A stretch of DNA of 64,000 nucleotides from Gammaproteobacteria bacterium. Lineage in GTDB: Bacteria; Pseudomonadota; Gammaproteobacteria; QZLD01. Of the stretch, positions 16,360-64,000 are shown piece by piece (the stretch's first letter is position 1; each line of letters opens with the position of its first letter). The position numbers and the translations under genes were made by a program. The notes under the pieces were generated by a model. That model did not search any database and was not told where the DNA came from. It worked only from the letters and a program-made list of their open reading frames with translations. The stretch is from assembly GCA_033852155.1 (NCBI GenBank), contig JAWSVA010000014.1:101393-165392 (forward strand), in the 5' to 3' direction.

Positions 16360-16493
16360 ACATCACCACCCTTTCACTGATAAACATCAGTATAACATGG
16401 TCAATATACTGCACAAGTTAAAACATTAACATTTACGCACGTAAATCAAATGGTTGAATTTTAGGAGCCGAGCTAAACCCTTTCTGAATATTT

Positions 16494-16599
16494 GGGGTCA
16501 GAGTAAAAATAAGCACCTTCAAATGACCAACCTTCTACAGCTCAACAACTTGCAAGCCTTAATTTTACTCTGACCCCAATTATTCGACCCCAATTATTC
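16494..16599. repeat. 15-bp perfect inverted repeat (GGGGTCAGAGTAAAA / TTTTACTCTGACCCC) with a 54-bp spacer, immediately followed by a 14-bp tandem direct repeat (GACCCCAATTATTC x2)
   Basis: Read directly from the sequence, between the yefM start and the DUF2130 gene end. A possible operator, MITE-like or att remnant. Confidence 0.6.
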
Positions 16600-22113: not shown

Positions 22114-22118
22114 AGGCC

Positions 22119-30396: not shown

Positions 30397-30519
30397 TTTC
30401 TCAAGAACCTATGTTTCTTCACTGCTATCCGAGGAAATCCAAAAACAAGATGACTAAGCCTTTCGGCCTTGGTTTATCTTGAAAATTAAGTGTAATAATA
30501 ACTAAGCCTGTTAGTAATA

Positions 30520-35362: not shown

Positions 35363-37747
35363 TTATTCAGCTTCTTGATTTGCTAAGTATAACCATGTCT
35401 CAACAACAGTATCTGGATTTAGAGAAACACTTTCGATCCCCTCTTCCATCAACCATTTAGCAAGATCAGGGTGATCTGAAGGTCCTTGACCACAGATTCC
35501 GATATACTTGTTTGCTTTTCTACACGCTTGAATAGCCATGTGCAGTAGCTTTTTAACAGCTGGGTTTCTTTCATCAAATAGATGAGCTATTAAGCCTGAA
35601 TCACGATCAAGACCAAGAGTAAGCTGGGTCAAATCGTTTGAGCCAATTGAGAAACCATCAAAGTATTCAAGGAACTCATCAGCCAAGATAGCGTTTGATG
35701 GTATTTCACACATCATCATAACTTTAAGGCCATCTTTACCACGCTCTAATCCGTTCTCTTTTAGCAACTCAATAACTTGCTGAGCTTCTTCAAGAGTTCT
35801 AACGAATGGAGCCATAATCCAGATATTCTTAAGGCCCATCTCATCACGAGCTTTACGCACTGCTTTACACTCAAGCTCAAAACAAGCACGGAAGCTGTCT
35901 GAAATATAGCGTGAAGCACCACGGAAACCAAGCATTGGGTTATCTTCTTCCGGCTCATATTTATCACCACCAATTAGGTTTGCATATTCGTTTGACTTAA
36001 AGTCAGACATGCGCACGATAACTGGTTTTGGTGAAAATGCGGCTGCTAGAGTAGATATACCTTCTGTAAGCTTTTCAACGTAGAAAGAAACAGGATCAGC
36101 ATACCCAGCCATTTGCTGGTCGATGATCGCTTTAGTTTCTGCAGGCTGTGTGTCGTAATTTAGAAGAGCTCTTGGGTGAACACCAATCATTTTAGCAATG
36201 ATAAACTCAAGTCTCGCAAGACCTACACCTTCATTTGGCAGTCTCTGGAAATCAAACGCTCTTTCTGGATTACCCACATTCATCATGATTTTAAATGCTA
36301 AATCTGGCATTGATTCAAGGTTGATTTGGTTCAATTCAAAATCGATCATACCGTTGTAGATATAACCTGTATCACCTTCTGCACAAGATACTGTTACATC
36401 AATTCCATCTTCAATCTTAGCTGTAGCATCGCCACAACCAACAACTGCTGGGATACCAAGCTCACGCGCGATAATCGCAGCATGACACGTTCTTCCACCA
36501 CGGTTAGTAACGATAGCTGAAGCTTTTTTCATCACTGGTTCCCAATCTGGGTCAGTCATGTCTGTTACTAGAACATCGCCAGCTTGAACCTTAGACATCT
36601 CCGAGATATCACTAACGATTCTTACTTTACCAGCACCAATTCTTTGACCAATACTTCTACCTGTTACTATCGCTTCGCCACCACTCTGCTTAAGAATGTA
36701 ACGTTCGATAACCTGGCCAGTTCTGCTCTGAACAGTCTCTGGACGTGCTTGTAAAATATATAGCTTGCCGTCATTACCATCTTTGCCCCACTCAATATCC
36801 ATTGGGCGGCCGTAATGTTTTTCGATAATAACTGCTTGTTTAGCTAACTCAGTAATTTCTGCATCTGAAAGTGAGAACACATTGCTCTCAGCAGGATCAA
36901 CATCAACAGTATCAACTGACTTACCGTGCTCTTTAGAGGCACCATAAACCATCTTGATAGCTTTACTACCGATGTTTCTTTGCAGGATTGCATGTTTACC
37001 TGCAGCCAAAGTTGGCTTGTGAACATAAAATTCGTCTGGGTTTACTGAGCCCTGTACAACTGTTTCACCAAGTCCGTAAGAAGATGTAATAAATACAACT
37101 TGATCAAATCCAGACTCTGTATCAATGGTAAACATAACACCAGCAGCGCCAATATCACTACGTACCATTCTTTGTACGCCAGCTGACAGAGCAACTAAGC
37201 TATGTTCGAAACCTTGGTGCACACGATAAGAGATAGCTCTATCGTTATATAGCGATGCAAATACATGTTTCATTGCGACAAATACATTGTCGATGCCACG
37301 TATATTAAGGAATGTTTCTTGCTGACCAGCAAATGATGCATCTGGAAGGTCTTCTGCTGTTGCTGAAGATCTTACTGCTACTGCCAAATCGCCACCTGCA
37401 TCTTTTTCCATCTTTTCAAATGCAGATCTGATATCTGCTTCAAAATCTGGAGTAAATGGTGTGTCGATAACTAGTTGTCTTATCTCTGCTCCAGCTTCAG
37501 CAAGTGCTGTTACATCGTCAGTATCAAGATTTTCTAGTCTTTGGTTTATCTTTTCACGTAAACCACTTTGATCCAAAAACTTCCAAAAGGCATCAGCTGT
37601 AGTAGCGAAACCTCCAGGGACTTGAACCCCTGCCTTGGATAGATGGCTAATCATCTCGCCAAGTGATGCGTTCTTTCCACCAACGCGTTCAACATCATCC
37701 ATCCCTAAATCTTCAAACCAAATTACATTGTCTAGCATAACTTGCAT
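35363..37747 (-). CDS. ppsA: Phosphoenolpyruvate synthase
   Basis: 794 aa. N-terminus [20 protein letters not shown]. Phosphohistidine domain ([14 protein letters not shown]). PEP-utilising C-terminal domain. Divergent from ppsR. Confidence 0.95.
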
Positions 37748-50368: not shown

Positions 50369-50859
50369 CTTAATCTGAGGCATTTTTGCCACTTTTTGCA
50401 ATTTTCAAAAAAGACAATCTATATATTTATCAAAAGATTAACATAATCAGTGAATTGTCCACTCGAGTGGACAATGTTTGCAAAAAGCACCTAAAAAAAC
50501 AAAAAACACTGCCGAAAAAGTTTGGGAATATTGGGATAGGAGAAAGAACTAATACTAACCTTGTAAGTTGGTGGTGAGCCCTTCGACTTAAGTTTATCTC
50601 GAGCCTTTCGGCTACGCTCAAGATAAACCAAGGCCGAGAGGTTCAGGATAAACCAAGGCGAACCCCAACATAACGTAAGCTAACTTAAAAGCAAACGCTG
50701 GGGCTCACTCTTCACCGTCACCCTACGCACCTCAAAAATAATATTTCAAAAGGCATAATATTACTCTGACGCAAATTAGTTTACAGCTACTTGAAGAAGC
50801 ACTAAGTGATTCTATACTGATATTAGCGAATAATACTTAACCACTAGCAGGGAGCTTTC

Positions 50860-52566
50860 ATGGCGAATAGTTATAATCAACTTAAATATGAAGTTGATGA
50901 AAAGCCAGATTTTAAAACCACACTTATTTTAGCCATACAGCACATCTCAATGGTTTATTCAGGAATTGTTTTGATGCCAATAATAATTGGCAGAGCTGTT
51001 GGTTTAGATGCAAGTACAATTAGCTATATGGTGTTCGTTACCGTCATTACCAGCGCAATTGCAACATACATTCAGATTTATAAGATCGGAAAAATCGGCT
51101 CTGGCATGGTCATGTTTATGGGAAGCAGCGGTGCTTACTGGGGGGCAACCTCAACCGCCTTGGCTGTTGGTGGAATACCGCTATTGATGACAATGAATAT
51201 TATTTCTGCCTTTTTGGAAATTATTGCCGCAAAATTCCTGGTACCTTTAAGAAAGATTTTTACGCCCGCAGTTGGCGGAACAGTGATAATGCTAATCCCA
51301 GTTTCTGTTCTTCCTGCAATTCTCAGTGCTTATTCAGGTGAGATAAAAGCTAGCGGACAAGTTTCAGAAAACATTATTATTGCTATTACCACCATGTCAG
51401 TATTGCTTGGGTGTTACATATTCGCCCCTAAAAAATATCAAACTCTTATGGTGCTAGCTGGTTTAATAGTGGGCAGTGTTTTAGCTACTGCCCTAGGAAT
51501 AATGGATTGGCAATCTGTTGCTGGAGCTTCAATTATTGGGCTTCCAGAAATGAAATGGCAACTCCCTGCTTTCGATTTTACCTGGCAACATTTTGCAATT
51601 TTACTAAGCTTTGTTATTGCTACTTTATCTAGCACCATTGAGACAATTGGCGATACCATGGTGTGCGAATCCATCTCTTATCGAAAATTTGTTAAACATG
51701 ATTTCAGCAAAATTAGTGGTGCACTTTATGCTGATGGGATTGGCAATATCCTTTCTGGATTGACAGGAGGAGTTGCTAATACAACCTATAGCACTAATAT
51801 TCCACTTATTAAAATCACGCAAGTATCTTCTCGAATTGTTGGTGGTGTTGGCGCCACCATACTCCTTATGCTGGCATTTTCCCCTGTCATCTCAGCAATA
51901 TTTTTAATTATTCCAAACGCTGTGTTAGTTCCAATTATTGCCTTTACATTTGCCTTGTTATTCGAAGCTGGTTTGTCTTTAGCAGGTAAAAACTCAGATA
52001 GACTTTCCCAATTAATAGTAGGGTTTTCATTTTTAATTGGGGTAGCTGGTGGTCAAAAACTATTATTAAATGAATATATGCCAGCAGTATTTCAGGAAAT
52101 TTTTGGCAACGCATTAACGACCGGTGGCCTCATAGCGATCATTTTATCCATAATTGCCAATATGGTTTTAAAGGGTAAAGTTGTGTTGCATGTTAAAACT
52201 CTAAAGACAAATATGGCTGAGTTTTTGGATGAACTAGAGAATAAGACTCAAGCAAGGTTCTCACTATCGGCTCGTGATTCATTCCGACTTCGCCTGTGTG
52301 CAGAAGAGCTTTTCGACTTTTTAACTGAACATAATATTGATGGTAATCTGACTGCCAAGTTTAGTGTTTATCGTCTTCCAAATGATATTTTGACTTGTGA
52401 TGTGATAACCGCATTTGATGTAAATGATGCAGATATTCTTACTGAAAATGCAGAAATTGGCGAACAATTGAATCTAGTTATTTTAAATAAATTGGCGAAT
52501 AAAGTTGAGCATGTACGCTCTGAATCAGCTGGATATATAACATTCGAATTGGCGCCTGAGGAATAA
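50860..52566 (+). CDS. NCS2-family nucleobase (xanthine/uracil-type) permease with ~130-aa C-terminal cytoplasmic extension resembling an RsbW-like GHKL domain
   Basis: N-terminal ~430 aa has the NCS2 profile (QHISMVYSGIVLMP ...). The C-terminal segment RLRLCAEELFDFLTEH...GNLTAKFSVYRLPNDILTCDVITAFDVNDADI...EIGEQLNLVILNKLA aligns by eye with the C-terminal GHKL domain of the 53271-55694 protein. Confidence 0.8.
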   Translation: MANSYNQLKYEVDEKPDFKTTLILAIQHISMVYSGIVLMPIIIGRAVGLDASTISYMVFVTVITSAIATYIQIYKIGKIGSGMVMFMGSSGAYWGATSTALAVGGIPLLMTMNIISAFLEIIAAKFLVPLRKIFTPAVGGTVIMLIPVSVLPAILSAYSGEIKASGQVSENIIIAITTMSVLLGCYIFAPKKYQTLMVLAGLIVGSVLATALGIMDWQSVAGASIIGLPEMKWQLPAFDFTWQHFAILLSFVIATLSSTIETIGDTMVCESISYRKFVKHDFSKISGALYADGIGNILSGLTGGVANTTYSTNIPLIKITQVSSRIVGGVGATILLMLAFSPVISAIFLIIPNAVLVPIIAFTFALLFEAGLSLAGKNSDRLSQLIVGFSFLIGVAGGQKLLLNEYMPAVFQEIFGNALTTGGLIAIILSIIANMVLKGKVVLHVKTLKTNMAEFLDELENKTQARFSLSARDSFRLRLCAEELFDFLTEHNIDGNLTAKFSVYRLPNDILTCDVITAFDVNDADILTENAEIGEQLNLVILNKLANKVEHVRSESAGYITFELAPEE

Positions 52567-52706
52567 TGTGTCCATTAATGGCATTATGGTAATTGCACTT
52601 ATTACTTGAAAGCGCGTTACCATAGTCTGTATTAACTGCATTTATTACTTTAATTCAGGTAATTTTACCCCAATTATTTCATACCTTTAGGCAGAATGAG
52701 TAAATT

Positions 52707-53099
52707 ATGGAAGAAACTGTTATACAACAAAAGCTCTGTGATGAGTTCCACATTTCTGAAAATTGTTATATTACCGAATTATCCAATACGGCTGACGATC
52801 CGGATGTTTCAATTGCCAAAGCGAGAGTTGAACCAGGAGTTACTACTCAATGGCATAGACTTGTAGGAACTACAGAACGATATTATATAATTAGCGGAAA
52901 AGGTATAGCGGAAATCGGAAAACTGCTACCTCAGGAAGTAAATGCCGGTGATATGCTACTTATCCCTCCAATGTGCCGCCAGCGTATTTCCAACATAGGC
53001 TCTGAAGATCTGATCTTTCTTGCAATCTGCACTCCCCGATTTTCCAATGATGCTTATGAAGATATTGAAGACGCTGTGAATTTATCTAGTACAAGTTAA
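52707..53099 (+). CDS. Cupin-domain protein
   Basis: 130 aa. Cupin_2 motifs G(x)5HxH-like (TTQWHRLVGTTERYYIISGKG) and GDMLLIPP. Confidence 0.7.
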   Translation: MEETVIQQKLCDEFHISENCYITELSNTADDPDVSIAKARVEPGVTTQWHRLVGTTERYYIISGKGIAEIGKLLPQEVNAGDMLLIPPMCRQRISNIGSEDLIFLAICTPRFSNDAYEDIEDAVNLSSTS

Positions 53100-53270
53100 A
53101 ACAAGCAAAAATCAATCTTGTAGCTAATATGAGTACCTCATACCCCCGACTAACTACATTGCTTGTATCGCTAAATTGCCCTCTAAAGATATTGTGCTAA
53201 GCTTTATGCACCAATGTGATTTTACTAATATAGATCAATCCTTTCCTGATAGACTACTTACAGGTTATTT

Positions 53271-55694
53271 ATGCGCTTTCACTCTCGTCTTATTCTACTC
53301 TTCTCAGTAACCATTTTAACTGCTGTTTTCCTCACCGCATCTTTGCTTGCATGGAGCTCCAGAAATTCAATGTATGAATCAACTCGCATTGATGGTGAGT
53401 TAGTTTCTTTACTTCTGGCAAGAAGTGCAGGATTCGCAAAACAGATACCTAAAGAGGTCGAAGATGCTCTCGGAGAACAAATGGTAGCCGCCGCAAACAT
53501 TGCAGCCGAATTTGTTGCCGCTGGTGAAAAAGCTGGCATGACCACCCCAGAGTTAACAACCCGACTTAAAGAGATCGTCAAACGCACTACCATTAATGAG
53601 ATTTGGGTTACCGATGAAAATGGGCATGCACTTCTTCATACCGAACCAGATGTTGATTTCACGTTCAGCCCAGACTCAACATTGCAACCTCAGGCATCCC
53701 AGTTTTGGCCACTGCTAACTAGAGAAAAAACAACCGTAATCCAGGATATGCGCAAAAGAGAAATTGATAATAAGTCATTCAAATACGTCGGCGTTACAGG
53801 GGTAGACAAACCAAGAATCGTTCAAATCGGTCTGGATGCATCAATGATAGAAAATCTTCGCCGCAGCATCGGTCTTGAATTTATGGTAGACAACCTGCTT
53901 GCCGGAGGCGATATTAATGCCATATGGGTTATCTCACCGGAGATGAAAACGATTGCCTACGGCTCAGTTTTTGGCAGCGACGTAAACCCTCAACCCACTC
54001 CTCGTGAAGCCAAAGCACTTCAAGAGGTTTTTGACCAACAAAAAACTCAAAGCATCCTAGAAAGCAATCAAATCACGATTATGACACCAGTGCCTAGTTC
54101 CACAGGAAAAACCATTGGCGTCTCACTAGTCCGTCTACCTCTTGACCACATGAACCAAACATTAAGAAACCAAATATATATTGCTATGATTATTGCTGCT
54201 GGATCGATATTAATTGGTATCTTAATCGCATTTGTAGCTGCCCGCAGAATTACAGATCCCGTTGAAACAATCACAGATGCAGCAAAGGCGATACAAGAAG
54301 GTAGCTTTACATCAGAGTGCCTGCTCAAGGTTTCCCAGAGATCCGATGAGATAGGCCAGTTAGCACAAGTAATTATCAAAATGGCGGAAGATGTATCAGC
54401 TCGCCAAGAATATCTCGATTGTTTGGTCACAGAACGTACGGCCGAACTCGAAATAAAAAATAAAGAAATAGAGCAAACCCACCAACAACTCCATAGTGAA
54501 TTAATGGTGGCACAATCGATGCAAATAGCCATCCTACCCACCGACTTTCCTGTGCATCCTAATTATGAAGTCTTTGGCAAAATGTTACCCGCCAAAGAGA
54601 TGGGAGGCGACTTCTACGATCTCTTCCAGATTGATGATGAGTGGTTGGGATTGGCGATTGCCGATGTCTCTGGTAAAGGGATGCCTGCTGCATTCTTTAT
54701 GGCAGTCTCCCGTACCGAGCTACAGTCAATTGCAGCCAGTGGTGGCGCCCCAGGTGAGGTACTCAGCCAAACCAATCAGAACTTGTGTTCTGAAAATCCA
54801 CTGGAACTATTTGTGACAGTTTTTTATGGGCTGGTAAATATCAAAACTGGACAGTTCATCTACTCCAATGGTGGTCATAACCCCCCTTATATATTGAGAG
54901 CTGATGGCAGCTGCGAAGCCTTACCATTAACTGGCGATATGGCCTTAGGTGTTATGCCCGACCTACTCTATCAAGACAACCAGGTCACCCTTCACACTGG
55001 GGATATGTTGGTGATGTTCACCGATGGTGTCACCGAATCATTTAATCCACAGGACGAAGAGTATGGCGAAGAGCGCCTTATTCAAACACTGAAAACAGCA
55101 AAAGGGGTTTCAGCAAAAGAACAGCTAGAAAATATCTATACCTCTGTTGACAATTTTGCCGACAATCGCGAACAATCAGATGACATAACCTGCCTTCTAT
55201 TCGATTTTCATCCAGAATCTGAATCTGAATCTGAATCTAAATCTGAATCTGGACGTATACCAACATCAGAAGTAATTGTTCTAACTAATGACCTTGCAGA
55301 ACTGGAAAAACTAGCCGGGGCAATTGAAAAATACTGTGACACACACGAGTTACCCCCAGCATGTTGTTTCCAGATAAATCTGGCTCTTGATGAGCTTATT
55401 ACCAACACAATAAGTTATAGTTTCGATGAAGGAGTGACTGGCAATATAACCATCCAGTTATCCTTAAATGCAGATATAGTAACAATATTATTAGTTGATG
55501 ATGGAAATCCATACAACCCTCTAGATACACCGCATCCTGACCTAGACGCTGAGATCGACGAGCGCGAAATTGGCGGCTTAGGCGTACATTTCGTGCGGGA
55601 ATATATGGATACCATAGACTACGAATATATGGATAATAAAAATCAACTAATATTGACCAAACAAACAACACCTCAGGATAACCAAGGAGAATAA
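53271..55694 (+). CDS. Membrane sensor fusion: periplasmic sensor domain - HAMP - PP2C (SpoIIE/RsbU-type) Ser phosphatase - (ESE)n linker - RsbW-like GHKL Ser kinase/anti-sigma domain
   Basis: Two TM helices flank a ~270-aa periplasmic region. HAMP after TM2. PP2C motifs GDFYDLF...AIADVSGKGMPAAFFMA...FTDGVTE. C-terminal LALDELITNTISYSF ... VDDGNPYNP ... GGLGVHFV (RsbW/SpoIIAB-like HATPase). Confidence 0.85.
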   Translation: MRFHSRLILLFSVTILTAVFLTASLLAWSSRNSMYESTRIDGELVSLLLARSAGFAKQIPKEVEDALGEQMVAAANIAAEFVAAGEKAGMTTPELTTRLKEIVKRTTINEIWVTDENGHALLHTEPDVDFTFSPDSTLQPQASQFWPLLTREKTTVIQDMRKREIDNKSFKYVGVTGVDKPRIVQIGLDASMIENLRRSIGLEFMVDNLLAGGDINAIWVISPEMKTIAYGSVFGSDVNPQPTPREAKALQEVFDQQKTQSILESNQITIMTPVPSSTGKTIGVSLVRLPLDHMNQTLRNQIYIAMIIAAGSILIGILIAFVAARRITDPVETITDAAKAIQEGSFTSECLLKVSQRSDEIGQLAQVIIKMAEDVSARQEYLDCLVTERTAELEIKNKEIEQTHQQLHSELMVAQSMQIAILPTDFPVHPNYEVFGKMLPAKEMGGDFYDLFQIDDEWLGLAIADVSGKGMPAAFFMAVSRTELQSIAASGGAPGEVLSQTNQNLCSENPLELFVTVFYGLVNIKTGQFIYSNGGHNPPYILRADGSCEALPLTGDMALGVMPDLLYQDNQVTLHTGDMLVMFTDGVTESFNPQDEEYGEERLIQTLKTAKGVSAKEQLENIYTSVDNFADNREQSDDITCLLFDFHPESESESESKSESGRIPTSEVIVLTNDLAELEKLAGAIEKYCDTHELPPACCFQINLALDELITNTISYSFDEGVTGNITIQLSLNADIVTILLVDDGNPYNPLDTPHPDLDAEIDEREIGGLGVHFVREYMDTIDYEYMDNKNQLILTKQTTPQDNQGE
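55215..55250. repeat. (GAATCT)n hexanucleotide microsatellite (5 perfect + 1 variant unit) encoding the ESESESESKSES linker
   Basis: gaatct gaatct gaatct gaatct aaatct gaatct, inside the 53271-55694 gene between the PP2C and GHKL domains. Confidence 0.85.
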
Positions 55695-55695
55695 T

Positions 55696-56034
55696 ATGAA
55701 TGTCAATTCTGAAACCGTAGGCGATATTAACATCGTCACCCCTAGTGGACGTCTAGATAGCATGACAGCCCCTAGTTTCGAATCTGAACTCCTGAGCCGT
55801 ACTGAAGAAAGCACAGACGGTGTGATCGTCGATTTTACTGACCTTGACTACGTATCCAGTGCAGGGCTAAGAATTATGCTCATGGCTGCTAAACGAATGA
55901 AAGCAGCATCTCGCAAGCTTATCATATGCGGACTAAGTGACTCTATACATGATGTGTTTAGAATCAGTGGTTTTCTGACTATTTTCACCATTGTCGGCAG
56001 CCGTGAAGAAGCGATCGAAAAGGCAAAAGAATAG
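55696..56034 (+). CDS. STAS-domain anti-sigma-factor antagonist (RsbV/SpoIIAA-like)
   Basis: 112 aa. Conserved phosphorylatable Ser region DLDYVSSAGLRIM. Start 2 nt after the stop of the upstream phosphatase/kinase gene. Confidence 0.85.
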   Translation: MNVNSETVGDINIVTPSGRLDSMTAPSFESELLSRTEESTDGVIVDFTDLDYVSSAGLRIMLMAAKRMKAASRKLIICGLSDSIHDVFRISGFLTIFTIVGSREEAIEKAKE

Positions 56035-56039
56035 AGGAA

Positions 56040-56906
56040 GTGACCAGCAAAATCCTGCCTAATAAAAACTATACAATCAGAATCGCGACGCTTACAGAAA
56101 TTGAAATTGCCATTGAATGGGCTGCCAAAGAGGGTTGGAATCCTGGCTTAAACGATATCGATTGTTACTATACAGCTGATGCAAACGGCTTCTTTATTGG
56201 GCTCCTCGACGATGAGCCTATTGCCACAATATCTGCAATTAAATATGGTAATACGTTTGGTTTCATTGGCTTCTATATTGTTAAGCCAGAATATCGCAAT
56301 AAGGGTTACGGCATACAAATTTGGAATGCTGCTTTAAAAAATTTACAGGGCCGAAATATTGGCCTTGATGGCGTAATTGCCCAACAAGATAATTACCAAA
56401 AATCCGGTTTCAACATGGCTTATAGCAATATACGCTATAAAGGAATCAGCGGTGGTAAACCACCTTATGACACAGAAATAATAGAACTATCCACCCTACC
56501 CTTTAAAACCATTGAGCTATACGAACGTCCATTCTTTCCTGAAGATCGGTCCCTATTTATCAAATCTTGGATAAATCAACCTGATTGCACTGCTCTGGGT
56601 ATAATGCGAAATGGAAAACTCCAAGGCTACGGTGTGATACGCGCGTGTCGTTCCGGATACAAGATAGGACCTCTTTTTGCGGAATGCCCAAAACAGGCCG
56701 AGTCTCTTTTTCTGGCGCTAAAATCCAGAGTTAAAGCAGGCGAACCAATTTATCTTGACGTACCAGAATCAAATCAAGCAGCAATATCATTAGCGAAGCG
56801 TAATAACATGCAGATAGTATTCGAGACGGCCAGAATGTATACGGGTGAAGAACCAGCTATACCACTGCATCGTGTCTTTGGAGTTACTTCTTTTGAAGTT
56901 GGATGA
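56040..56906 (+). CDS. GNAT-family N-acetyltransferase (tandem GNAT-like halves), GTG start
   Basis: 288 aa. Acetyl-CoA binding-type motif region (IVKPEYRNKGYGIQIWN). The 3' ~350 bp is duplicated downstream at 60172-60554. Confidence 0.7.
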   Translation: MTSKILPNKNYTIRIATLTEIEIAIEWAAKEGWNPGLNDIDCYYTADANGFFIGLLDDEPIATISAIKYGNTFGFIGFYIVKPEYRNKGYGIQIWNAALKNLQGRNIGLDGVIAQQDNYQKSGFNMAYSNIRYKGISGGKPPYDTEIIELSTLPFKTIELYERPFFPEDRSLFIKSWINQPDCTALGIMRNGKLQGYGVIRACRSGYKIGPLFAECPKQAESLFLALKSRVKAGEPIYLDVPESNQAAISLAKRNNMQIVFETARMYTGEEPAIPLHRVFGVTSFEVG

Positions 56907-56936
56907 ATAAATTAGCCAATGCATTTGAGATAGTTG
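56554..56936. repeat. Left copy of a 383-bp direct repeat (about 97% identical to 60172-60554)
   Basis: Aligned by eye: the same sequence from GTCCCTATTTATCAAATCTTGG through GCATTTGAGAT, with ~10 substitutions. Covers the GNAT 3' end plus 30 bp downstream. Confidence 0.85.
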
Positions 56937-56945
56937 ATTGCCATA

Positions 56946-58334
56946 CTAAGTCTCTTCAAGGTTTGATTTAACTCGAGGTGAGAGTTCAAATTGTGGGTGT
57001 TGTTTTATAGATTTTTCCGCCTTCAAAGACTGTAAAAACAGCCGAATACTTTCCTCAAGATAATCTTCGTGCTTTTCAAAGCAGCACCTTTGATCATAAT
57101 CCAAGCCTTTAAAATCTTTCAGATAACATCCTCCAAGACAAGACGGCAAGAACTTACAGTTCAAACATTTATATTCATCAAATGGAGACACAGAAAGCCA
57201 TTTATTACTTATCTGATTATTAATTATTTCTTGATCTAAATTTCCAACAACATGCTCGGGCTTACCCACCGTTTCCCAACATTTATATAATTTACCACCA
57301 GCATCAATGACGTAACTATTTTTACGCAATGCGCAACATGCTATTTTTTGAGGTTGAACTGGTTTATGCATTTTAAAGCCCAGTTCAATTGCATACTCCC
57401 AATATTCACTAAGCAATAAAGAAAATTCGGCCGGATTGTAGCATGATTTACATTGAGATCCTTTTTGGTCATCTGCAAAACTCTTATGCACCGGGCCAAA
57501 ACACAAACGTATTTTCCTTTGAAGATCTTCATCTGCAAGAAATTTAAGTAAAGGTTTTATATCAGATGAATTTGATGTATCTACTTTAATACCAAGACTA
57601 ATATCGATATCAGAAACAGCATGCAGATTTTTAATAATAGTGCTAAAAGAATCACCACCATCAATAGACTTTCTTCGCTCATTGTGAACTGTTTGTGTTC
57701 CATCTATTGTTACAGCAATAGTTTCTACCTTATATTTTTTTAATAATTTTGAACATGATGTCGTAAGTAAATACCCATTGCTTACAACAACTGCTGAATA
57801 AGTTATTCCTTTCGATTCTGCAAAATCAATCAGCTGTTCCGAAATGGCTGCAATCTGCTCCATTGCCAAAAGAGGCTCTCCACCAAACCAAACAATATTT
57901 ATATGTTTGCAATTTCCAGCTTTAATTTTGATAAAATCAACCAATTTGGCGATTGTTTCCACGCCCATATAGCTAGTTGATTTATCCTGAAAACAATAAG
58001 TGCAATTGAAATTACAATCCATTGTCGGTGCAATAGTAAAATCTACATATTGATCTGTATATCTATGGTATTCATGCTCAGCGTTAAGCAAACTTACTTC
58101 ATCAACATGCTTAGGAATAATCATTCCTGCGGAATATAAAGCATCATAGAGTCCTTCTGGAATATCTATAATATCGCTACTTTTTTTAGATTTATTATTA
58201 TTTAGCCAATTATAGTGTTCATCGCTTAATTGCACTAATGACCCAGTTAGGGTGCTAAAAGCATACGAGGTTGCTCCATCTTCTATCGGAAATATAAACT
58301 TTGATACCTTCATCCGTTCACTAACGACATACAA
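56946..58334 (-). CDS. Radical SAM/SPASM-domain peptide-modifying enzyme (RiPP maturase-like)
   Basis: CNFNCTYC (CxxxCxxC) about 105 aa from the N-terminus. C-terminal Cys-rich SPASM region (CKSCYNP ... CCALRKN ... YKCW ... CLNCKFLPSCLGGC ... CCF). 462 aa. The start overlaps the end of the upstream peptide ORF by 25 nt. Confidence 0.85.
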   Translation of the reverse strand: MYVVSERMKVSKFIFPIEDGATSYAFSTLTGSLVQLSDEHYNWLNNNKSKKSSDIIDIPEGLYDALYSAGMIIPKHVDEVSLLNAEHEYHRYTDQYVDFTIAPTMDCNFNCTYCFQDKSTSYMGVETIAKLVDFIKIKAGNCKHINIVWFGGEPLLAMEQIAAISEQLIDFAESKGITYSAVVVSNGYLLTTSCSKLLKKYKVETIAVTIDGTQTVHNERRKSIDGGDSFSTIIKNLHAVSDIDISLGIKVDTSNSSDIKPLLKFLADEDLQRKIRLCFGPVHKSFADDQKGSQCKSCYNPAEFSLLLSEYWEYAIELGFKMHKPVQPQKIACCALRKNSYVIDAGGKLYKCWETVGKPEHVVGNLDQEIINNQISNKWLSVSPFDEYKCLNCKFLPSCLGGCYLKDFKGLDYDQRCCFEKHEDYLEESIRLFLQSLKAEKSIKQHPQFELSPRVKSNLEET

Positions 58335-58528
58335 GGTTTTCCACCTGATTCATAATACGGACCACAAAGGCATGATAACTGCTCTTCAATTATCTTTTTC
58401 ATTATTTCAAAACGCTCATCACCAGCATTTTCAATATTTTTTAATTGCTCAGCTGTTAATTCAAAAATCAATCGTGTTTTATCCCTACTAGCATCAAGTA
58501 TTACCTTTGTTTCCTTATCATCACTCAT
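58310..58528 (-). CDS. Candidate RiPP precursor peptide (72 aa; acidic/helical leader plus Cys-rich C-terminal core SCLCGPYYESGGKPCMSLVNG)
   Basis: Strong ribosome-binding site (AGGAGAATTGT-ATG). Overlaps the maturase start (translational coupling). Leader is rich in K/E/D with an FELTAEQL motif. Core has 3 Cys, a GG and YY. Confidence 0.5.
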   Translation of the reverse strand: MSDDKETKVILDASRDKTRLIFELTAEQLKNIENAGDERFEIMKKIIEEQLSCLCGPYYESGGKPCMSLVNG

Positions 58529-58996
58529 ACAATTCTCCTTTGAATATATTAAATTAATATTAAACTCTCACATCAACTTCAATAGTTATTTGTAAAGTAA
58601 CTATCAATCATTTGACCTATGTACTTTACTTATACAATAACAACACTGTCAACTTATCTGAGCCTTGCGAATTCGTAATTAATACATTTACAATAAATCA
58701 TAGTATTTACTATAACCCGCAGGATTTTACTACTTTTAGAAGTCTTTGGTAGGGTGTGTTTTGATACCAGTTGCCGCCCCATCACCAAATTAAGAAGATC
58801 AACCCTCTTGTATATAAAGAGTCCGTTGACCTTTTTTATTTCTCAATATGATATTTTTTTAAAGGATGTCACTCAAACATATCAAACTGCACAGGATGAG
58901 ATGCAGCAAAATATTTTGATGTTTGTTCTTTTACTTTGTTTTCTGTCTTCTCTTTAAGTTTCTTTGCTTTATAAACAGCTGTTGCCTGTTCTTGGA

Positions 58997-60106
58997 TTAG
59001 CTCTTGTGTGGTACTTCATTCTTTTGAACATGAACATATAGATCCCTGCTAAGCCCTATTCCCTTAAACCAGCTCTGCTTAGCTTTAACCGCATATTCTT
59101 TAAGCTTTTCTGTTGCACCTGCAAGATGGTAATAGCGTGAACCAAAATATTTAACCGACTTAATCCAGTTTTTTTCTTGTACTCCAAGCTGTTCAAGAAT
59201 TGGTCTTATCTCAGGGGGGATATACCCACGTTTATCGTCTCGTATTGCTCTGCCTGTCCAATCTGCTAGTTCAAAGTAATCAAGTGGTGAGAAGCTTATT
59301 CCCTTATCATTTAAGTTATCGCTATTATCACAGGTTATCGACCCTGAAAATGGCAAAAGATCTTGTGGCTGAGCCATCTTCTTAACTGATTTTTTATTAT
59401 GTCTGCACTCTGTTGTAAGAGTTGGAACATCATTGGTTTTACGCTGTTTTCTTTTGTTCTCTTTCTGTGCAAAAACCTTGATGCGTTCTTCTATTGAAGT
59501 GAATTCTGAGCTTTGAATGGAATCACTTATCTTGGCTCTAATTGGATTTAAATCCACATAGATCATGCATGATAACAACGCTGTTTCATCTAATAGAGCT
59601 TGGCTTTTAAACCGTCCTTCCCAGAACCTGCCTTTACAGTTATCTTCTTTATTCGCCTGTCTTGCGATGGATTCATTCATGCAGCGCATTAACCAGGATA
59701 TATTGGTTAATCTATCACGCCATTCTGCAATTATCTCATCAACCTTTTCTAACTCAGCCTTACCAAGTTCATCACCAGTCATATAGCGATTAATCAAAAC
59801 ATTGCCTGCAAACAGCTGCACCCAGCGCTCGATAACTTCTTTGTTCGACCAGCTATCAGCCTTCTCTTTATCTACATGAAAAACAACATGATAGTGATTA
59901 CTCATTACCGCATAAGCACAGATATCTATCGCATAGATTGATGATAGCTGCTTAAGCTTATCTACAACCCATTTCTTACGGTGGTCAAAATTCTTTCCTG
60001 TTGAATAATCTTCCCCGCACAAGAAAGCACGGCGCACACAGCGAACCACACAATGGTAGTAGGGAGTATCTTCTAGGCTTACTTGATCTTTTCTGGCTTT
60101 TGTCAT
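58997..60106 (-). CDS. HUH-type Y1 transposase, IS200/RAYT-like (COG1943) long form (369 aa)
   Basis: YHCVVRCVRRAF (cf. YHVVWCPKYR), HUH motif SNHYHVVFHV, GRFWEGRF (cf. IWQPRFWEH of RAYT), catalytic-Tyr region MIYVDLNPIRA (cf. DYIYINPVKHG). Has an extra ~170-aa C-terminal region. Confidence 0.55.
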   Translation of the reverse strand: MTKARKDQVSLEDTPYYHCVVRCVRRAFLCGEDYSTGKNFDHRKKWVVDKLKQLSSIYAIDICAYAVMSNHYHVVFHVDKEKADSWSNKEVIERWVQLFAGNVLINRYMTGDELGKAELEKVDEIIAEWRDRLTNISWLMRCMNESIARQANKEDNCKGRFWEGRFKSQALLDETALLSCMIYVDLNPIRAKISDSIQSSEFTSIEERIKVFAQKENKRKQRKTNDVPTLTTECRHNKKSVKKMAQPQDLLPFSGSITCDNSDNLNDKGISFSPLDYFELADWTGRAIRDDKRGYIPPEIRPILEQLGVQEKNWIKSVKYFGSRYYHLAGATEKLKEYAVKAKQSWFKGIGLSRDLYVHVQKNEVPHKS

Positions 60107-60171
60107 GATTTGGTTATTCTACCCTGCTGATGCATAAACGTAAATCAAATTTTGGGTGTCCTTTATATTCA

Positions 60172-60554
60172 GTCCCTATTTATCAAATCTTGGATAAATC
60201 AACCTGATTGCACTGCTCTGGGTATAATGCGAAATGGAAAACTCCAAGGCTACGGTGTGATACGCGCGTGTCGTTCCGGATACAAGATAGGACCTCTTTT
60301 TGCGGAATGCCCAAAACAGGCCGAGTCTCTTTTTCTGGCGCTAAAATCCAGGGTTAAAGCAGGTGAACCAATTTATCTTGATGTACCAGAACCAAATCAA
60401 GCAGCAATATCATTAGCGAAGCTTAATAACATGCAGGTAGTATTCGAGACTGCCAGAATGTATACGGGTGAAGAACCAGCTATACCACTGCATCATGTCT
60501 TTGGAGTTACCTCTTTTGAAGTTGGATGAATAAATTGGCCAATGCATTTGAGAT
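60172..60554 (+). pseudogene. Right copy of the 383-bp repeat: orphan 3' fragment of the GNAT gene (ORF 60152-60529, 125 aa, with no N-terminal half)
   Basis: Encoded protein LFIKSWINQPDCTALGIMRNGKLQGYGVIRACRSGYKIGPLF...GVTSFEVG is about 96% identical to the C-terminus of the 56040-56906 product. Confidence 0.8.
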
Positions 60555-60613
60555 TACCAATAATTCATTATTTTAAGTCCTATATTTCATATACATGAAG
60601 TGTTTAGAATCAG

Positions 60614-62347
60614 TTATTTGGCAATGATGCGTCCTTCAATACTGCGTATTACAGGTGAATTGGTAGTGAATTCTTCGACCAACAGATCGATCCCAAGAAT
60701 ACCCGTATCACGACAATACGCGCCACTCGCACAAAGTTCCTGGAGCATCGTGTAACCGTCTCCACCACCAGCCATAAAACCATTGATAGCTATCCGGTAG
60801 GTCGTACTGGGATCGACAGGCTGATGATTGATAGTCAGTTTGGTCACCCGCCCCGCCGTCCTTAGTGCACCGACACAAGGCAATTGGGTGCAATAGGTCA
60901 AAGTCATGCCAGCTATTTGAGGAAAAGCGCCATCTCCTGCCTGAGACACCCCATAATCCAGCGCAGCAATCAGGGTATCACCATCAATTTCCATAGCTAC
61001 TAGCGTATTGCCAAATGGCAAAACTGCTAAAGCATCCTCAAACGTAATATCACCCTGGTTAAGATCAGCACGAATGCCGCCGCCATTTATAATTGCTGCA
61101 TCCACCTGATCTGAGTTAGCTGCCGATTCGAGGAAAACATCAGCAATCAGATTACCCTGTGGCATCTCTTGAGTACGCACGCCTGGGGCGCGCTGAGCAT
61201 CAAAGAACATACCGGCCTGACCTATAATTGTATTGGCGAAAATTTCTACGGGTTGACGATAGGCGGCTACCTTGGCCTTAATTACAGCGTTTTCCGCAGC
61301 AACCTGCTGCTGACACTCCACGGCGCCATTCGCAAATTCACAACCGCGCACAAAGACAGGCTGGCTTTGCCAGTTCTGAATCACGCCGAATTTATCAAAG
61401 CTGACATCGATTTGTCCCAGCCACCGCCCCGACTCGTTAGCGCTAACAATAAGCACCGGATTACCATCCTGCGCAGTCACCACGGTTGGATAGGGACCTT
61501 TGCTTAGTGCGCCCTGCCCGGGAGCGACTGCGTCGATAGTGGTCGGATCGCCCAAAAGAGCATGGTCGTGCCCCGAAATGATGAGATCAACCCCCCTCAG
61601 TTGTAGCGCTTTCTGCACATCGACCGTATAGCCGTAATGGGAGAGTAGAATGATTTTGTTGACGCCCTGTTCAGTCAGGCGATTAGCCTCCGCCTGGACA
61701 CTAGCGACGTAATCAAGAAAGCTTAGATTAGAACCAGGCTTAGAGACGGTAGGAACATCTTCAGTAACGATACCAAGAATGCCGAATTGCTCGCCACCGC
61801 GTTCCAGGATAACGCTGGTTGGGAGCAGGTCTGATAGCGCCGACTCGCGAGAAGTGTCGACATTGGTGGCGATCATAGGTGTCCGTAATGGTTCAGTTTC
61901 GTACACAGCGCTGGAGATGGCAACAGGTTCGCCACGTAAAGCCCGCCCCAGTTCTGCCGGTTCCATATCAAATTCATGGTTGCCCAGAGTGGTCGCATCG
62001 TAACCAAGGGCATTGAGCGCCATAACTTCGGCTGATCCTTTCCAGGCATTATAAAAAATTGTTCCTTGAAAGTTGTCACCGGAGTCTAGCAGGAGGGTGT
62101 GTGGTTTGATTGCGCGTATTTCATCAATAATTGTCTTGCGGCGAGCAATACCTCCCTGTTGTGGCCCAGGGTTGTTGGCAGACAGTTCGCTATCGCGGGG
62201 AAAAGGCTCCAGACGGCTATGGGTATCATTAGTATGGAGGATGGAGATAGTTATGGGCTGATGGTTCCAGCTGTCGCTATTACCACCACAAGCTGTCAGC
62301 AGCGATAATGAAAGGATCAGGAAAAGCAGATCTACGTGCATATTCAA
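60614..62347 (-). CDS. Lipoprotein bifunctional 5'-nucleotidase / metallophosphoesterase (UshA-like)
   Basis: Lipobox LLTAC|GG. Calcineurin-like phosphoesterase motifs (DTHSRLE, GDNFQG, GNHEFD, GHDH). C-terminal 5'-nucleotidase domain. Markedly GC-richer than the rest of the window. Confidence 0.85.
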   Translation of the reverse strand: MNMHVDLLFLILSLSLLTACGGNSDSWNHQPITISILHTNDTHSRLEPFPRDSELSANNPGPQQGGIARRKTIIDEIRAIKPHTLLLDSGDNFQGTIFYNAWKGSAEVMALNALGYDATTLGNHEFDMEPAELGRALRGEPVAISSAVYETEPLRTPMIATNVDTSRESALSDLLPTSVILERGGEQFGILGIVTEDVPTVSKPGSNLSFLDYVASVQAEANRLTEQGVNKIILLSHYGYTVDVQKALQLRGVDLIISGHDHALLGDPTTIDAVAPGQGALSKGPYPTVVTAQDGNPVLIVSANESGRWLGQIDVSFDKFGVIQNWQSQPVFVRGCEFANGAVECQQQVAAENAVIKAKVAAYRQPVEIFANTIIGQAGMFFDAQRAPGVRTQEMPQGNLIADVFLESAANSDQVDAAIINGGGIRADLNQGDITFEDALAVLPFGNTLVAMEIDGDTLIAALDYGVSQAGDGAFPQIAGMTLTYCTQLPCVGALRTAGRVTKLTINHQPVDPSTTYRIAINGFMAGGGDGYTMLQELCASGAYCRDTGILGIDLLVEEFTTNSPVIRSIEGRIIAK

Positions 62348-62675
62348 AACAACCTCATTTTACAAACAATCTCTTTTCGAAAAAAACTGTGTAAATTTAA
62401 CTCCTCTGATATTGGCATCTTATTTATTGGTTTTAGAACTAGCCGAATGCTATATAAGAATTATTTTTAATTTTAGTACATCTGAGTTTTAAAAAGCAGA
62501 AATAATCCACACATATAGGATGTTAATCGTATAAGGGCAAAGTAACTAGAAAATACTCACTATTCTCTGTAGCAGACGTAAGTAGAGTGCCACGAGTAAA
62601 AGACAGCGAACAAAATTGATTTCCTGTATATATAACCTATCCTTAATAGAGTTAAATCTGTTGGAATCTTAAAAA

Positions 62676-64000
62676 ATGGTAAATATTATCAAGCAGTTAT
62701 GGCTAATCTGCACTCTCATTGCGTTAGCTTCGCTTGCCCTGTTGTTATCCGATCTAGAACAACGTCCACATTATTCTCAAAGTGAACTAAAGACCTATCC
62801 CGCCATTGCGATCATGCAGATTACTTCCACTAACCTACTTGATAGTCATGTCAAAGGGGTTGTCGACCGTTTGCAGGAAGCAGGTTTTCTGGCACCGGAT
62901 AAGAAAAACCTGCATATTTTTAATCCACAGAGTGACATTTCCACGGCCAATGCCATTGCCAGTGAGCTTGCCAATGGTCCCTACGAAATTATAATCACCT
63001 CCAGCACCATTGCACTCCAGGTTTTTGCTAATGCCAACCGCACCAGCCAGAAAAAACATGTATTTGGAGCTGTAACCAATCCCTACACAACTGGGGTTGG
63101 AATCACTGGACCAGAGCCTACACAGCACCCCCCTTATCTGGCGGGGGTAGGCACCTTTCAGCCAGTCAAGGCCGCCGTTAGACTGGCGCATGAAATGAAT
63201 CCAGAATTACAACGATTGGGCGTGGTATGGAATTCTTCCGAACAATCTTCCGAAGCCTGTCTGATTGAGGCAAGAGCCATCACTGCCGAGCTGAATATCA
63301 ACCTGATTGAGGCCATCGCCACCAACACGTCGGAAGTTTACGAAGCCACACAATCCCTGATTGCCAAAAAAGTAGATGCCATTTGGATTGGAGGAGACGT
63401 GGTCGCGACTGCCTCCATAGATCTAATCATCAAACTGGCCACGCAGGCCGGAATTCCTGTCTTCACGAATGACCCTACCGATGCAGACAAAGGGGCAATC
63501 TTTGGTTTGGGTGCGGATTATGCAACCGTAGGCAAGCATACGGCGAATATCGCCATAGCCATCTTAAATGGAGCCTCCCCCGGCTCTTTCAGAATAGACA
63601 ATGACGTTCCTGAGCTTTTGAAAATCAATAACAATGCAATCAAAAAATTCCATTCAAAATGGAAAGTCACGGCTGGGGCTAAGGCCACTTTGACCAAGCA
63701 AAACGACCTATTCCTGCAAAACAACCGCCCAATCGCCCCGCCTGGAAAAAGTTGGCATATAGGGCTTTCCTATATTGTTCCCGCCCCAATTTTTGACTAC
63801 GCGATCCAAGGGTTCAAAGATGGATTGGCGGACCTGGGATTCATAGAAGGCAAAAATATCGAGATCACTATTCAACACGCCAACGGGGACCTTTCATTTT
63901 TACCTCAGGCAACAACGAACCTGGTTCAGCTAAAACCGGATCTATTGGTGGCTATGTCCACGCCAAGTCTGGGAAGTGCTATAGCGCATTCCAATGGAAT
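62676..64000 (+). CDS. ABC transporter substrate-binding protein, tandem-domain type (COG2984/PF04392-like), 3'-truncated by the window edge
   Basis: Self-translated ORF from the ATG at 62676 (MVNIIKQLWLICTLIALASLALL... signal/anchor). Two homologous halves (...AIAIMQITS...GVVWNSSEQSS... and ...HIGLSYIVPAPIFD...) typical of this SBP family. Not in the ORF track because it runs off the window. Confidence 0.6.
   Translation, partial: MVNIIKQLWLICTLIALASLALLLSDLEQRPHYSQSELKTYPAIAIMQITSTNLLDSHVKGVVDRLQEAGFLAPDKKNLHIFNPQSDISTANAIASELANGPYEIIITSSTIALQVFANANRTSQKKHVFGAVTNPYTTGVGITGPEPTQHPPYLAGVGTFQPVKAAVRLAHEMNPELQRLGVVWNSSEQSSEACLIEARAITAELNINLIEAIATNTSEVYEATQSLIAKKVDAIWIGGDVVATASIDLIIKLATQAGIPVFTNDPTDADKGAIFGLGADYATVGKHTANIAIAILNGASPGSFRIDNDVPELLKINNNAIKKFHSKWKVTAGAKATLTKQNDLFLQNNRPIAPPGKSWHIGLSYIVPAPIFDYAIQGFKDGLADLGFIEGKNIEITIQHANGDLSFLPQATTNLVQLKPDLLVAMSTPSLGSAIAHSNG

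Follow-up and report, generated by a model that had tools for sequence, protein, structure and literature searches.

The locus described here lies in a 64,000-nt stretch of DNA from a Gammaproteobacteria bacterium (assembly GCA_033852155.1, contig JAWSVA010000014.1, forward-strand positions 101,393 to 165,392), which is referred to in its full length as the window. It harbors a GNAT acetyltransferase gene whose 3' end is present twice, on either side of a segment that carries a peptide-maturase cassette and a gene of the RAYT-like, DUF1568-type family of Y1 HUH transposases (termed the Tnp gene below). The intact GNAT gene is completed by the left copy of the repeat (copy A), while the right copy (copy B) constitutes an orphan fragment of the same gene. 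To the right of copy B are located a short spacer, a patch that matches part of the nearby STAS gene, a 5'-nucleotidase gene and an ABC_sub_bind periplasmic binding-protein gene. The coordinates of these features, all in window numbering, are collected in Table 1.

Table 1. Features of the duplicated GNAT locus and its surroundings in the window
Feature	Position	Strand	Remarks
GNAT acetyltransferase gene, intact, two-domain	56040-56906	+	288 codons, GTG start; 3' part is copy A
Repeat copy A	56549-56931	+	383 nt: last 358 nt of the GNAT reading frame plus 25 nt downstream
Inserted segment between the repeats	56932-60171		3,240 nt, three minus-strand genes; composite
Radical-SAM/SPASM peptide-maturase gene	56946-58313	-	455 aa, ATG at 58313
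Degenerate direct copy of the upstream block	56986-57008	-	20/24 positions; in the non-conserved C-terminal tail of the maturase reading frame, 54 nt from the left junction
72-aa precursor-like peptide	58310-58528	-	C-terminus ..QLSCLCGPYYESGGKPCMSLVNG, three Cys; TGA overlaps the maturase ATG (ATGA)
AT-rich spacer	58529-58996		468 nt, ~31-33% GC
RAYT-like / DUF1568-type Y1 HUH transposase-family (Tnp) gene	58997-60106	-	369 aa; HUH (H71, H73) and Tyr183 (YVDLNP) intact
Upstream region of the Tnp gene	60107-60171	-	family-conserved block AAAGGACACCC..ATTTAC(-35)..TAGAAT(-10)
Repeat copy B	60172-60554	+	383 nt, orphan GNAT C-terminal fragment
Spacer after copy B	60555-60589		35 nt, unmatched elsewhere in the window or in L083
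STAS-gene patch	60590-60619	+	source 55944-55973; 24/25 identical, 27/30 overall; E = 2.7e-4 in the search space used
5'-nucleotidase/metallophosphatase gene	60614-62341	-	Pfam Metallophos and 5_nucleotid_C; lipoprotein-like N-terminus (LLTAC)
Resumed synteny with L083	62611-64000	+	ABC_sub_bind periplasmic binding-protein gene from 62676, runs off the window

The two copies of the repeat are collinear and ungapped over their 383 nt, with 10 mismatches (97.4% identity) and a start-to-start spacing of 3623 nt; the BLAST match between them reaches 386 nt at 97.15% with E = 0, which excludes chance. An initial annotation of the window had recognized 383-bp direct repeats of about 97% identity that flank an insertion, non-collinear copies having been named as counter-evidence; the repeats, their collinearity and their position around foreign-looking DNA were borne out. 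Its coordinates for copy B are exact, while those for copy A are 5 nt too high. The GNAT open reading frame (ORF) completed by copy A is full-length and typical of the family (Pfam Acetyltransf_1, 4.8e-14; Acetyltransf_18, 4.8e-32), and the host gene is thus intact, as had been claimed. Copy B falls within an orphan ORF at 60152-60529, which extends over 125 aa from a TTG start (100 aa in the public annotation, P0242) and keeps its Acetyltransf_18 match (2.9e-28). The left junction (J1, 56931|56932) joins the GNAT 3' flank, 25 nt past the stop codon, to the end of the maturase gene, and the right junction (J2, 60171|60172) joins the outer edge of the Tnp upstream region to GNAT position 56549. 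A 7-bp hairpin (ATTTATC-N8-GATAAAT) is situated 6 nt inside the left end of the repeat. A 7-nt in-register match to the left of the repeat, CTACCCT, was dismissed as coincidence, because it derives from the conserved -10 region of the Tnp gene and a conserved GNAT codon run.

A syntenic relative without the cargo was found in a 9-kb contig of GCA_041156785.1, designated L083, which shares with the window the permease, cupin, SpoIIE-type phosphatase, STAS and GNAT genes. It possesses a single GNAT gene and lacks the inserted segment; behind the GNAT gene come 91 unrelated nt and then the ABC_sub_bind gene, which lies 173 nt after GNAT. The GNAT orthologue of L083 (P0121, 93% identity, syntenic) is the closest GNAT protein found, while the best match in the species-representative genome collection has 76% amino acid identity and no synteny. 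Since L083 has one GNAT gene and no cargo, the duplication and the cargo represent an insertion rather than an ancestral tandem paralogue, in agreement with the initial annotation. The tandem-paralogue origin is ruled out by L083 together with about 85 other loci with a GNAT relative, none of which contains another GNAT fragment; a paralogy shared across the family is thereby dismissed too. L083 is nevertheless too diverged (synonymous divergence, dS, of 0.2-0.9) to serve as a true empty site.

The comparison with L083 also revealed that the extra DNA of the window is larger than the segment between the repeats, covering 56923-62610 (5.7 kb) with copy B inside it. The repeats accordingly do not bracket the whole of the insertion, contrary to what had been assumed. 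The related suggestion that the entire 56.9-64.0 kb stretch might be a mosaic acquisition is only partly right, the extra DNA ending at 62610; beyond that point, window 62611-63996 is 93.7% identical to L083 6499-7885 and encodes the syntenic ABC_sub_bind gene (Pfam 1.4e-46). The GC content amounts to 0.49-0.54 at 60.6-62.2 kb, 0.34-0.36 at 62.2-62.8 kb and about 0.50 from 62.8 kb onward, and the ABC_sub_bind gene of about 50% GC that starts at 62.6 kb is native rather than acquired, as it is equally GC-rich in L083.

The divergence from L083 over 50860-56906 and 62676-64000 is itself a mosaic. The dS values are 0.42 for the permease gene, 0.85 for the cupin gene, 0.86 for the SpoIIE gene and 0.62 for the 5' half of the STAS gene, and they fall to 0.27 for the 3' half of STAS, 0.23 for GNAT and 0.22 for the ABC gene, with a breakpoint inside STAS at about 55870-55940. 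The drop at the 3' half of STAS implies that homologous DNA from relatives enters the locus, and the tract from this breakpoint through GNAT into the ABC gene appears to have been exchanged between lineages more recently than its left-hand neighbors. If so, the L083 gene order, with GNAT directly beside the ABC gene, is likely to be the ancestral state of the tract.

The inserted segment is a composite of two clade-resident modules that occur separately in relatives. The first is the maturase cassette. The maturase has a radical SAM core (Pfam Radical_SAM, 2.2e-12) and a SPASM domain (NCBIfam TIGR04085, 49.3 bits against a cut-off of 27), and it is preceded by a small, co-translated peptide with a Cys-rich C-terminus that ends in ..CLCGPYYESGGKPCMSLVNG, which together place it among the maturases of ribosomally synthesized and post-translationally modified peptides (RiPPs). 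Its best full-length family, TIGR04463, is matched at 262 bits, under the cut-off of 525, and no specific equivalog cut-off is reached. Apart from the protein itself, its best homologue among 5.8 billion proteins shows 29-35% identity, and the best match on metagenome contigs only 32%. The 72-aa peptide has a sole relative among 1.84 billion representatives, a 96%-identical peptide on contig L101 (run SRR26541460), where the maturase once more comes directly after it, the two overlapping by 4 nt. L101 90-1488 is a partial copy of the window cassette (56946-58557) with 94% nucleotide identity, a dS of 0.24 and a non-synonymous divergence (dN) of 0.028, and the resulting dN/dS of 0.12 signifies purifying selection. 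The upstream neighbor on L101 is different, its gene ending 25 nt before the peptide, and homology to the window begins at 58557. The AT-rich spacer harbors the region's best promoter-like site (58652-58623, minus strand). As a separate observation, the peptide-maturase pair constitutes an orphan RiPP-like cassette, with no protease or exporter gene alongside it in the window.

The second module is the Tnp gene, the closest relative of which (L081/L082; 86% amino acid and 84% nucleotide identity) resides among RHS and toxin-antitoxin genes; the DNA homology to L081 spans only window 59034-60164 and ends 7 nt from J2. As the two modules are found apart, in other contexts, they must have been brought to this locus. 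The cargo contains nothing of the usual integrative kind: neither the ORF list nor Pfam nor NCBIfam disclosed an integrase or any gene for a tyrosine or serine recombinase, be it within the 3.24-kb insert or across the whole 5.7 kb of extra DNA (56.9-62.6 kb). This gene content effectively refutes an explanation in which a phage- or island-type integrase would have inserted into GNAT with a replacement 3' end. The architecture does correspond to such an event, with the gene rebuilt by one tail and a slightly different, displaced tail at the far end, but PHROGs matches in the region are confined to generic radical-SAM and acetyltransferase families, and no such insertion occurs at the GNAT loci of about 85 other genomes.

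The Tnp protein might be either a passenger or the agent of the insertion. Its sequence scores are sub-threshold, with 19.9 bits for Pfam Y1_Tnp (cut-off 23) and 43.7 bits for NCBIfam REP_Tyr_transpos (NF047646; cut-off 80), in the latter case over residues 134-198 alone, and sequence and profile searches of the PDB with this protein gave nothing useful. Nevertheless, H71, H73 and Y183 are invariant in 20 homologues, and a Foldseek search with the AlphaFold model of the N-terminal domain placed RAYT 4ER8 and the IS200/IS608/ISDra2 TnpA structures at ranks 1-30, with target-normalised TM-scores up to about 0.57. The upstream regions of five homologues, when aligned, share a conserved block that ends 3-7 nt from the boundary of copy B and overlaps a promoter-like site at 60144-60116. 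The 24-nt block near both ends of the insert forms no hairpin; its exact form occurs once in the window, and the degenerate copy near J1 is weakly significant (score reached in 24 of 2000 shuffles). Across the DUF1568/RAYT-like family, the conserved upstream block takes the form AAAGGACACCC(A/G)TAAT and is often present in two copies, which in the window correspond to 60145-60168 and 56986-57008; it may act as an operator or mark element ends.

These properties allow a scenario in which the Y1 HUH protein itself was the agent. It would have started at its own upstream end (60171), read through the far end in a donor and stopped at a surrogate end 6 nt beyond the 7-bp GNAT hairpin; the ensuing 3,623-nt circle of cargo plus GNAT tail would then have re-entered GNAT by homology or at the same cut site, by analogy with a one-ended capture of the ISCR type. 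The preserved HUH motif, catalytic Tyr and Y1 transposase fold speak for it, as do the distance of only 3-7 nt between J2 and the outer edge of the conserved block, the degenerate direct copy near the other end (p ~0.01) and the hairpin near the left end of the repeat. The direction of read-through fits as well: along the sense strand of the transposase gene, the GNAT tail comes 3' to the insert. Moreover, in three sub-lineages the homologous gene is bracketed by direct repeats, which measure 22 nt in L081 (7938-7959, 9094-9114), 37 nt in L086 (3849-3885, 5189-5225) and about 105 nt, gapped, in L090 (886-988, 2635-2743). These emerged from later local alignment of shorter or gapped repeats, after first search settings had yielded no flanking duplications of at least 40 nt in five homologue loci.

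The behavior of the family points the other way. DUF1568/RAYT-like Y1 HUH proteins are generally regarded as domesticated, and the gene acts as a stationary, low-copy chromosomal resident: L117 and L090 show synteny between species, a pair of copies from one genome shares just 79% nucleotide identity, and the family is nearly absent from true plasmids (15 of 72,556 records, for the most part very large replicons, with 14 above 200 kb). The conserved upstream block, overlapping a promoter, may be merely regulatory. No convincing REP-like palindromes, terminal hairpins or terminators were detected around the insert, nor any terminal hairpin common to both ends, and the 64-kb window holds one copy of the gene with no REP-like array for it. 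Furthermore, insertion of the IS200/IS605 type yields no duplication. That a DUF1568/RAYT-like Y1 HUH protein still mobilizes DNA, and here packed a RiPP cassette with 383 nt of GNAT into a 3.6-kb circle that re-entered and regenerated the gene, is therefore considered decidedly unlikely.

The substitutions that separate the copies were examined for what they reveal about the origin of the duplication. Five of the 10 differences are synonymous, four are non-synonymous (S244P, R254L, I259V and R278H, the same four replacements listed in the initial annotation) and one is non-coding. When polarized with L083 as the outgroup, five changes are derived in copy B (two synonymous, plus R254L, I259V and R278H) and four in copy A (two synonymous, P244S and the non-coding one), with one further change ambiguous. 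Between the copies, dS is 0.062 and dN 0.015, a ratio of 0.24, as compared with a dS of 0.173, a dN of 0.030 and a ratio of 0.17 between copy A and its functional orthologue in L083. With nine coding changes, the likelihood ratio between a model in which both copies are constrained and one in which one copy is neutral is only about 1.9. The pattern would fit two functional tails that had diverged in separate lineages, and almost equally one constrained and one decaying copy, and the dN/dS between the copies is uninformative as to whether copy B came pre-diverged from a donor or decayed in place. The initial inference from these substitutions was hence correct in that the duplication is not fresh, yet a foreign donor is not proven by them, given that changes are derived on both copies and that divergence in place also fits.

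All 10 differences are located within the last 203 nt of the repeat, the first 180 nt being identical. A gene-conversion or crossover boundary was considered as the cause of this 3' clustering and rejected, because the 5' part evolves slowly in the outgroup too and the probability of finding none of the 10 differences in the first 180 nt is about 0.13, given the rate heterogeneity seen with L083. The 5' 180 nt of the repeat (56549-56729 / 60172-60352) are, in their own right, unusually conserved at the nucleotide level relative to L083, with six differing sites as against 27 in the remainder of copy A and a dS of 0.07 versus 0.30 in the 3' half.

The substitutions also bear on a one-step duplication in place that would have needed no homology, whereby illegitimate or replicative repair, through staggered breaks 383 nt apart with fill-in or through a template switch at a fork, duplicated the tail of GNAT while the cargo was being inserted, and the copies diverged afterwards. 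The roughly even split of derived changes, with more amino acid changes on the orphan copy, R254L among them, is what such a history would leave behind. In addition, the adjoining junction on the right, where a templated-looking STAS patch of 25-30 nt lies next to 35 nt of filler, carries a signature resembling template switching or end joining, and the purifying selection on the cassette could have kept the insert in spite of its repeats. On the other hand, flanking duplications of hundreds of bases are no known product of bacterial end joining or transposition, while the homology route has experimental precedent. Neither junction displays convincing microhomology (TC at most at J2), and two 383-bp direct repeats separated by 3.2 kb would need to have persisted over a span that corresponds to roughly one quarter of the divergence between the GNAT genes of the window and L083 (dS 0.062 versus 0.23). 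A duplication of this kind is thus unlikely.

The reality of the arrangement was examined against independent assemblies. Logan contig L085 (SRR26541448) equals window 56842-59128 with one mismatch and crosses J1 with A-type bases, while six further contigs (L095-L100), each from a different run, match parts of window 60452-63914 at 100% identity and with B-type bases; they extend from the right end of copy B, across the spacer, the STAS patch and the 5'-nucleotidase gene, into the ABC gene. L085 ends at 56842 (56872-30), and L095 and L099 at 60465 (60495-30); these ends fall exactly 30 nt from the nearest copy-specific base, as expected of k = 31 graphs if both copies are in the sample. As the first 180 nt are identical in both copies, k-mer content (k up to 180) would not tell the arrangement of the window from a chromosome with a B-type GNAT gene accompanied by a free circle of 3,623 nt.

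It follows that an assembly artefact has to be weighed, in which the chromosome would have a single GNAT gene with a B-type tail, and the cargo with an A-type tail would belong to a 3.6-kb circle of its own, or to another strain, and have been threaded in by the assembler. The equal k-mer content of the two topologies would permit it, as would the breaks in the Logan contigs, which leave no linkage across the repeat, and J2 is found in no independent assembly. Against it, the public 179.7-kb contig passes through both copies, a paired-end assembler would normally give a chromosome without the loop unless read pairs backed it, and A-type and B-type contigs coexist in a single run, SRR26541448. 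A separate circle, besides, needs the same two novel junctions, which leaves the biology (cargo plus GNAT tail) unchanged. This explanation is accordingly regarded as very unlikely.

Taken together, the locus is best interpreted as the scar of a homology-assisted integration through the GNAT tail, either a Campbell-type single crossover or a homology-facilitated illegitimate recombination, by DNA that already carried the cargo beside a GNAT 3' end, a reading to which a probability of about one half is assigned. A DNA molecule would have carried the 3.24-kb cargo (cassette, spacer and RAYT-like gene) joined at J1 to a GNAT 3' segment, and would have recombined, through the shared GNAT sequence, with a resident GNAT gene that lacked the cargo. 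If the molecule was circular, it would have been closed at J2, and one crossover in the 383 nt of homology, most easily in the 180-nt identical block, would give the order GNAT 5' part, copy A, cargo, copy B and downstream DNA. If it was linear, a fragment ending at 60171 would have used a homologous GNAT anchor together with one illegitimate join of its far end to GNAT position 56549. By both routes the GNAT ORF would be regenerated and one 3' end left as an orphan. We infer that one step depended on homology and that J1 existed beforehand in a donor chromosome, possibly that of a sister strain or a sister copy of the chromosome; the 2.6% divergence between the copies may pre-date the event or have accrued afterwards.

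Several lines of evidence favor the homology-assisted reading, among them the collinear, ungapped copies, the single GNAT gene of the cargo-free L083, the absence of a further GNAT fragment at about 85 other loci and the separate occurrence of the two cargo modules. The fall in dS from 0.85 at the cupin and SpoIIE genes to 0.22-0.27 at the STAS 3' half, GNAT and the ABC gene indicates that homologous exchange occurs at the locus, the dN/dS of 0.24 between the copies resembles the 0.17 of functional orthologues, and the cargo lacks an integrase or recombinase of the usual integrative kind. An experimental precedent exists in E. coli, where 56 of 60 recombinants had arisen by a single crossover of a circular molecule with truncated homology, and 14 of them, when sequenced, had duplications of 109-950 bp flanking the insert (PMC3240628). 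The Campbell-type integration of a circular element put forward in the initial annotation is therefore plausible and the best explanation available, although it falls short of being demonstrated; no circle, donor arrangement or integrase was found.

A number of observations weigh against the homology-assisted reading. None of the collections searched contained the donor arrangement (GNAT-J1-cargo followed by non-GNAT DNA), a B-type empty site or a circular form. J2 is absent from all independent assemblies and is carried by one assembly, which is also alone in connecting the 5' part of GNAT with A-type instead of B-type bases. Synonymous derived changes are two on each copy, whereas non-synonymous ones number three on the orphan and one on the intact copy, and R254L on the orphan strikes an Arg that is kept in 105 of 120 homologues, Leu occurring in none; the substitution pattern would be equally compatible with divergence in place after a duplication of any type. 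Finally, copy B is not followed by the downstream DNA of L083 but by 35 nt, the STAS patch and the 5'-nucleotidase gene, which means that at least one further event has to be assumed.

This further event concerns the right-hand side of the locus. The STAS patch abuts the stop codon of the 5'-nucleotidase gene, which has about 52% GC as against about 37% for the genome and is absent at this position in L083. Its best matches on plasmid records reach 35-37% identity only, while the exact protein is present in six Logan runs. On one reading, inferred from the arrangement only, the gene would have arrived in a separate event with a homology anchor in the ABC gene and an illegitimate left join, from a donor in which a truncated STAS gene stood beside it; alternatively, the STAS patch may be templated filler DNA at an illegitimate junction. 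Under either reading, two or more events struck the intergenic site behind GNAT. Tandem-array histories for the head-to-tail order of GNAT tail and STAS were dropped, since all of them need at least three extra events.

The locus is a real insertion scar of a familiar kind and not a new type of mobile element. Its value is that it illustrates cleanly, in a natural setting, how a gene may receive a small accessory cassette behind it without being inactivated, with the duplicated tail as the scar; the site, between STAS/GNAT and ABC-binding-protein flanks, has acquired different DNA on repeated occasions within a single lineage. In annotation, the 100-125-aa "GNAT" ORF is to be treated as a relic and not as a gene; for assembly checking, the 180-nt identical block hides linkage; and the flanking repeats predict that the cassette is easily lost through recombination. 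The chief question concerns the neighboring Y1 HUH gene, which may be the agent or a mere bystander. Only if mobilization by the Y1 HUH protein were true would the locus matter more, as it would then represent a Y1 counterpart of ISCR-type gene capture.

Two features elsewhere in the window were noted in passing. A dispersed 22-nt intergenic repeat, AAGATAAACCAAGGCCGARAGG, occurs at 30459-30480 (-) and 50620-50641 (+), with a weaker copy at 37522-37552, whereas the chance expectation is 0; it includes a short GC stem and may be a REP-like element. A 28-nt inverted repeat at 16486-16598 (93% complementary, 44-nt loop) overlaps the short tandem motif GACCCCAATTATT and lies just downstream of a DUF2130 gene, beside a type I restriction-modification cluster (18976-25827).

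Among known systems, Campbell-type integration shares with the locus an insert framed by direct repeats of target-gene sequence a few hundred bases long, in a size within the experimental range of 109-950 bp (PMC3240628), the independence from a dedicated recombinase and the continuity of one repeat with the rest of the gene; the segment doubled here is single-copy in genomes without the insert (L083 and about 85 loci). The differences are that the present case is a natural event for which neither donor nor circle was found, that the copies are 2.6% diverged and that the right copy lacks the relative's downstream DNA. Homology-facilitated illegitimate recombination is likewise close, in that one junction is seamless through GNAT homology and the other, J2, is joined with at most 2 nt of microhomology. 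The classical form usually deletes recipient DNA, and a duplication requires that the illegitimate join lie upstream of the end of the anchor.

The integrase-mediated replacement of a gene's 3' end, reportedly exemplified by e14 and phage 21 at icd, where the integrating element supplies the replacement, has in common with the locus an intact gene with a supplied tail and an orphan tail with scattered substitutions, but it differs from an insert of just 3.2 kb that is devoid of integrase and of phage or island genes. IS200/IS605 elements and RAYTs resemble the Tnp protein in fold, HUH motif and catalytic Tyr; the gene is, like RAYT genes, single or low-copy and chromosomal, and in several relatives direct repeats stand on both sides of it. 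However, the protein falls under both curated cut-offs and has double the length (369 aa, including a conserved C-terminal extension), and the 383-nt flanking duplication is not a product of IS200/IS605 chemistry. Within the 64-kb window, the locus does not display the absence of target duplication and the several near-identical copies that characterize IS200/IS605 elements, nor does the gene combine a score above the NF047646 cut-off with flanking REP palindromes, as a RAYT would; neither such palindromes nor terminal hairpins were found here.

The complex class 1 integrons linked to ISCR1 offer an architectural likeness for the Tnp gene and its passengers, as they too hold an HUH-enzyme gene and passenger genes between two copies of an adjacent host segment and lack a transposase-type target-site duplication (PMC3575428). 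A one-ended mobilization of flanking DNA followed by homologous recombination has been proposed for them, with the 3' conserved segment (3'-CS) doubled around ISCR1 and the captured genes (PMC3575428; Toleman et al. 2006 as cited there). The enzymes of ISCR/IS91 elements, though, are of the Y2 type (Pfam Y2_Tnp), whereas the window protein is a RAYT-like Y1 enzyme and the region has no Y2_Tnp match; no oriIS or terIS is recognizable here and the window family appears largely stationary, so that the likeness is one of architecture only.

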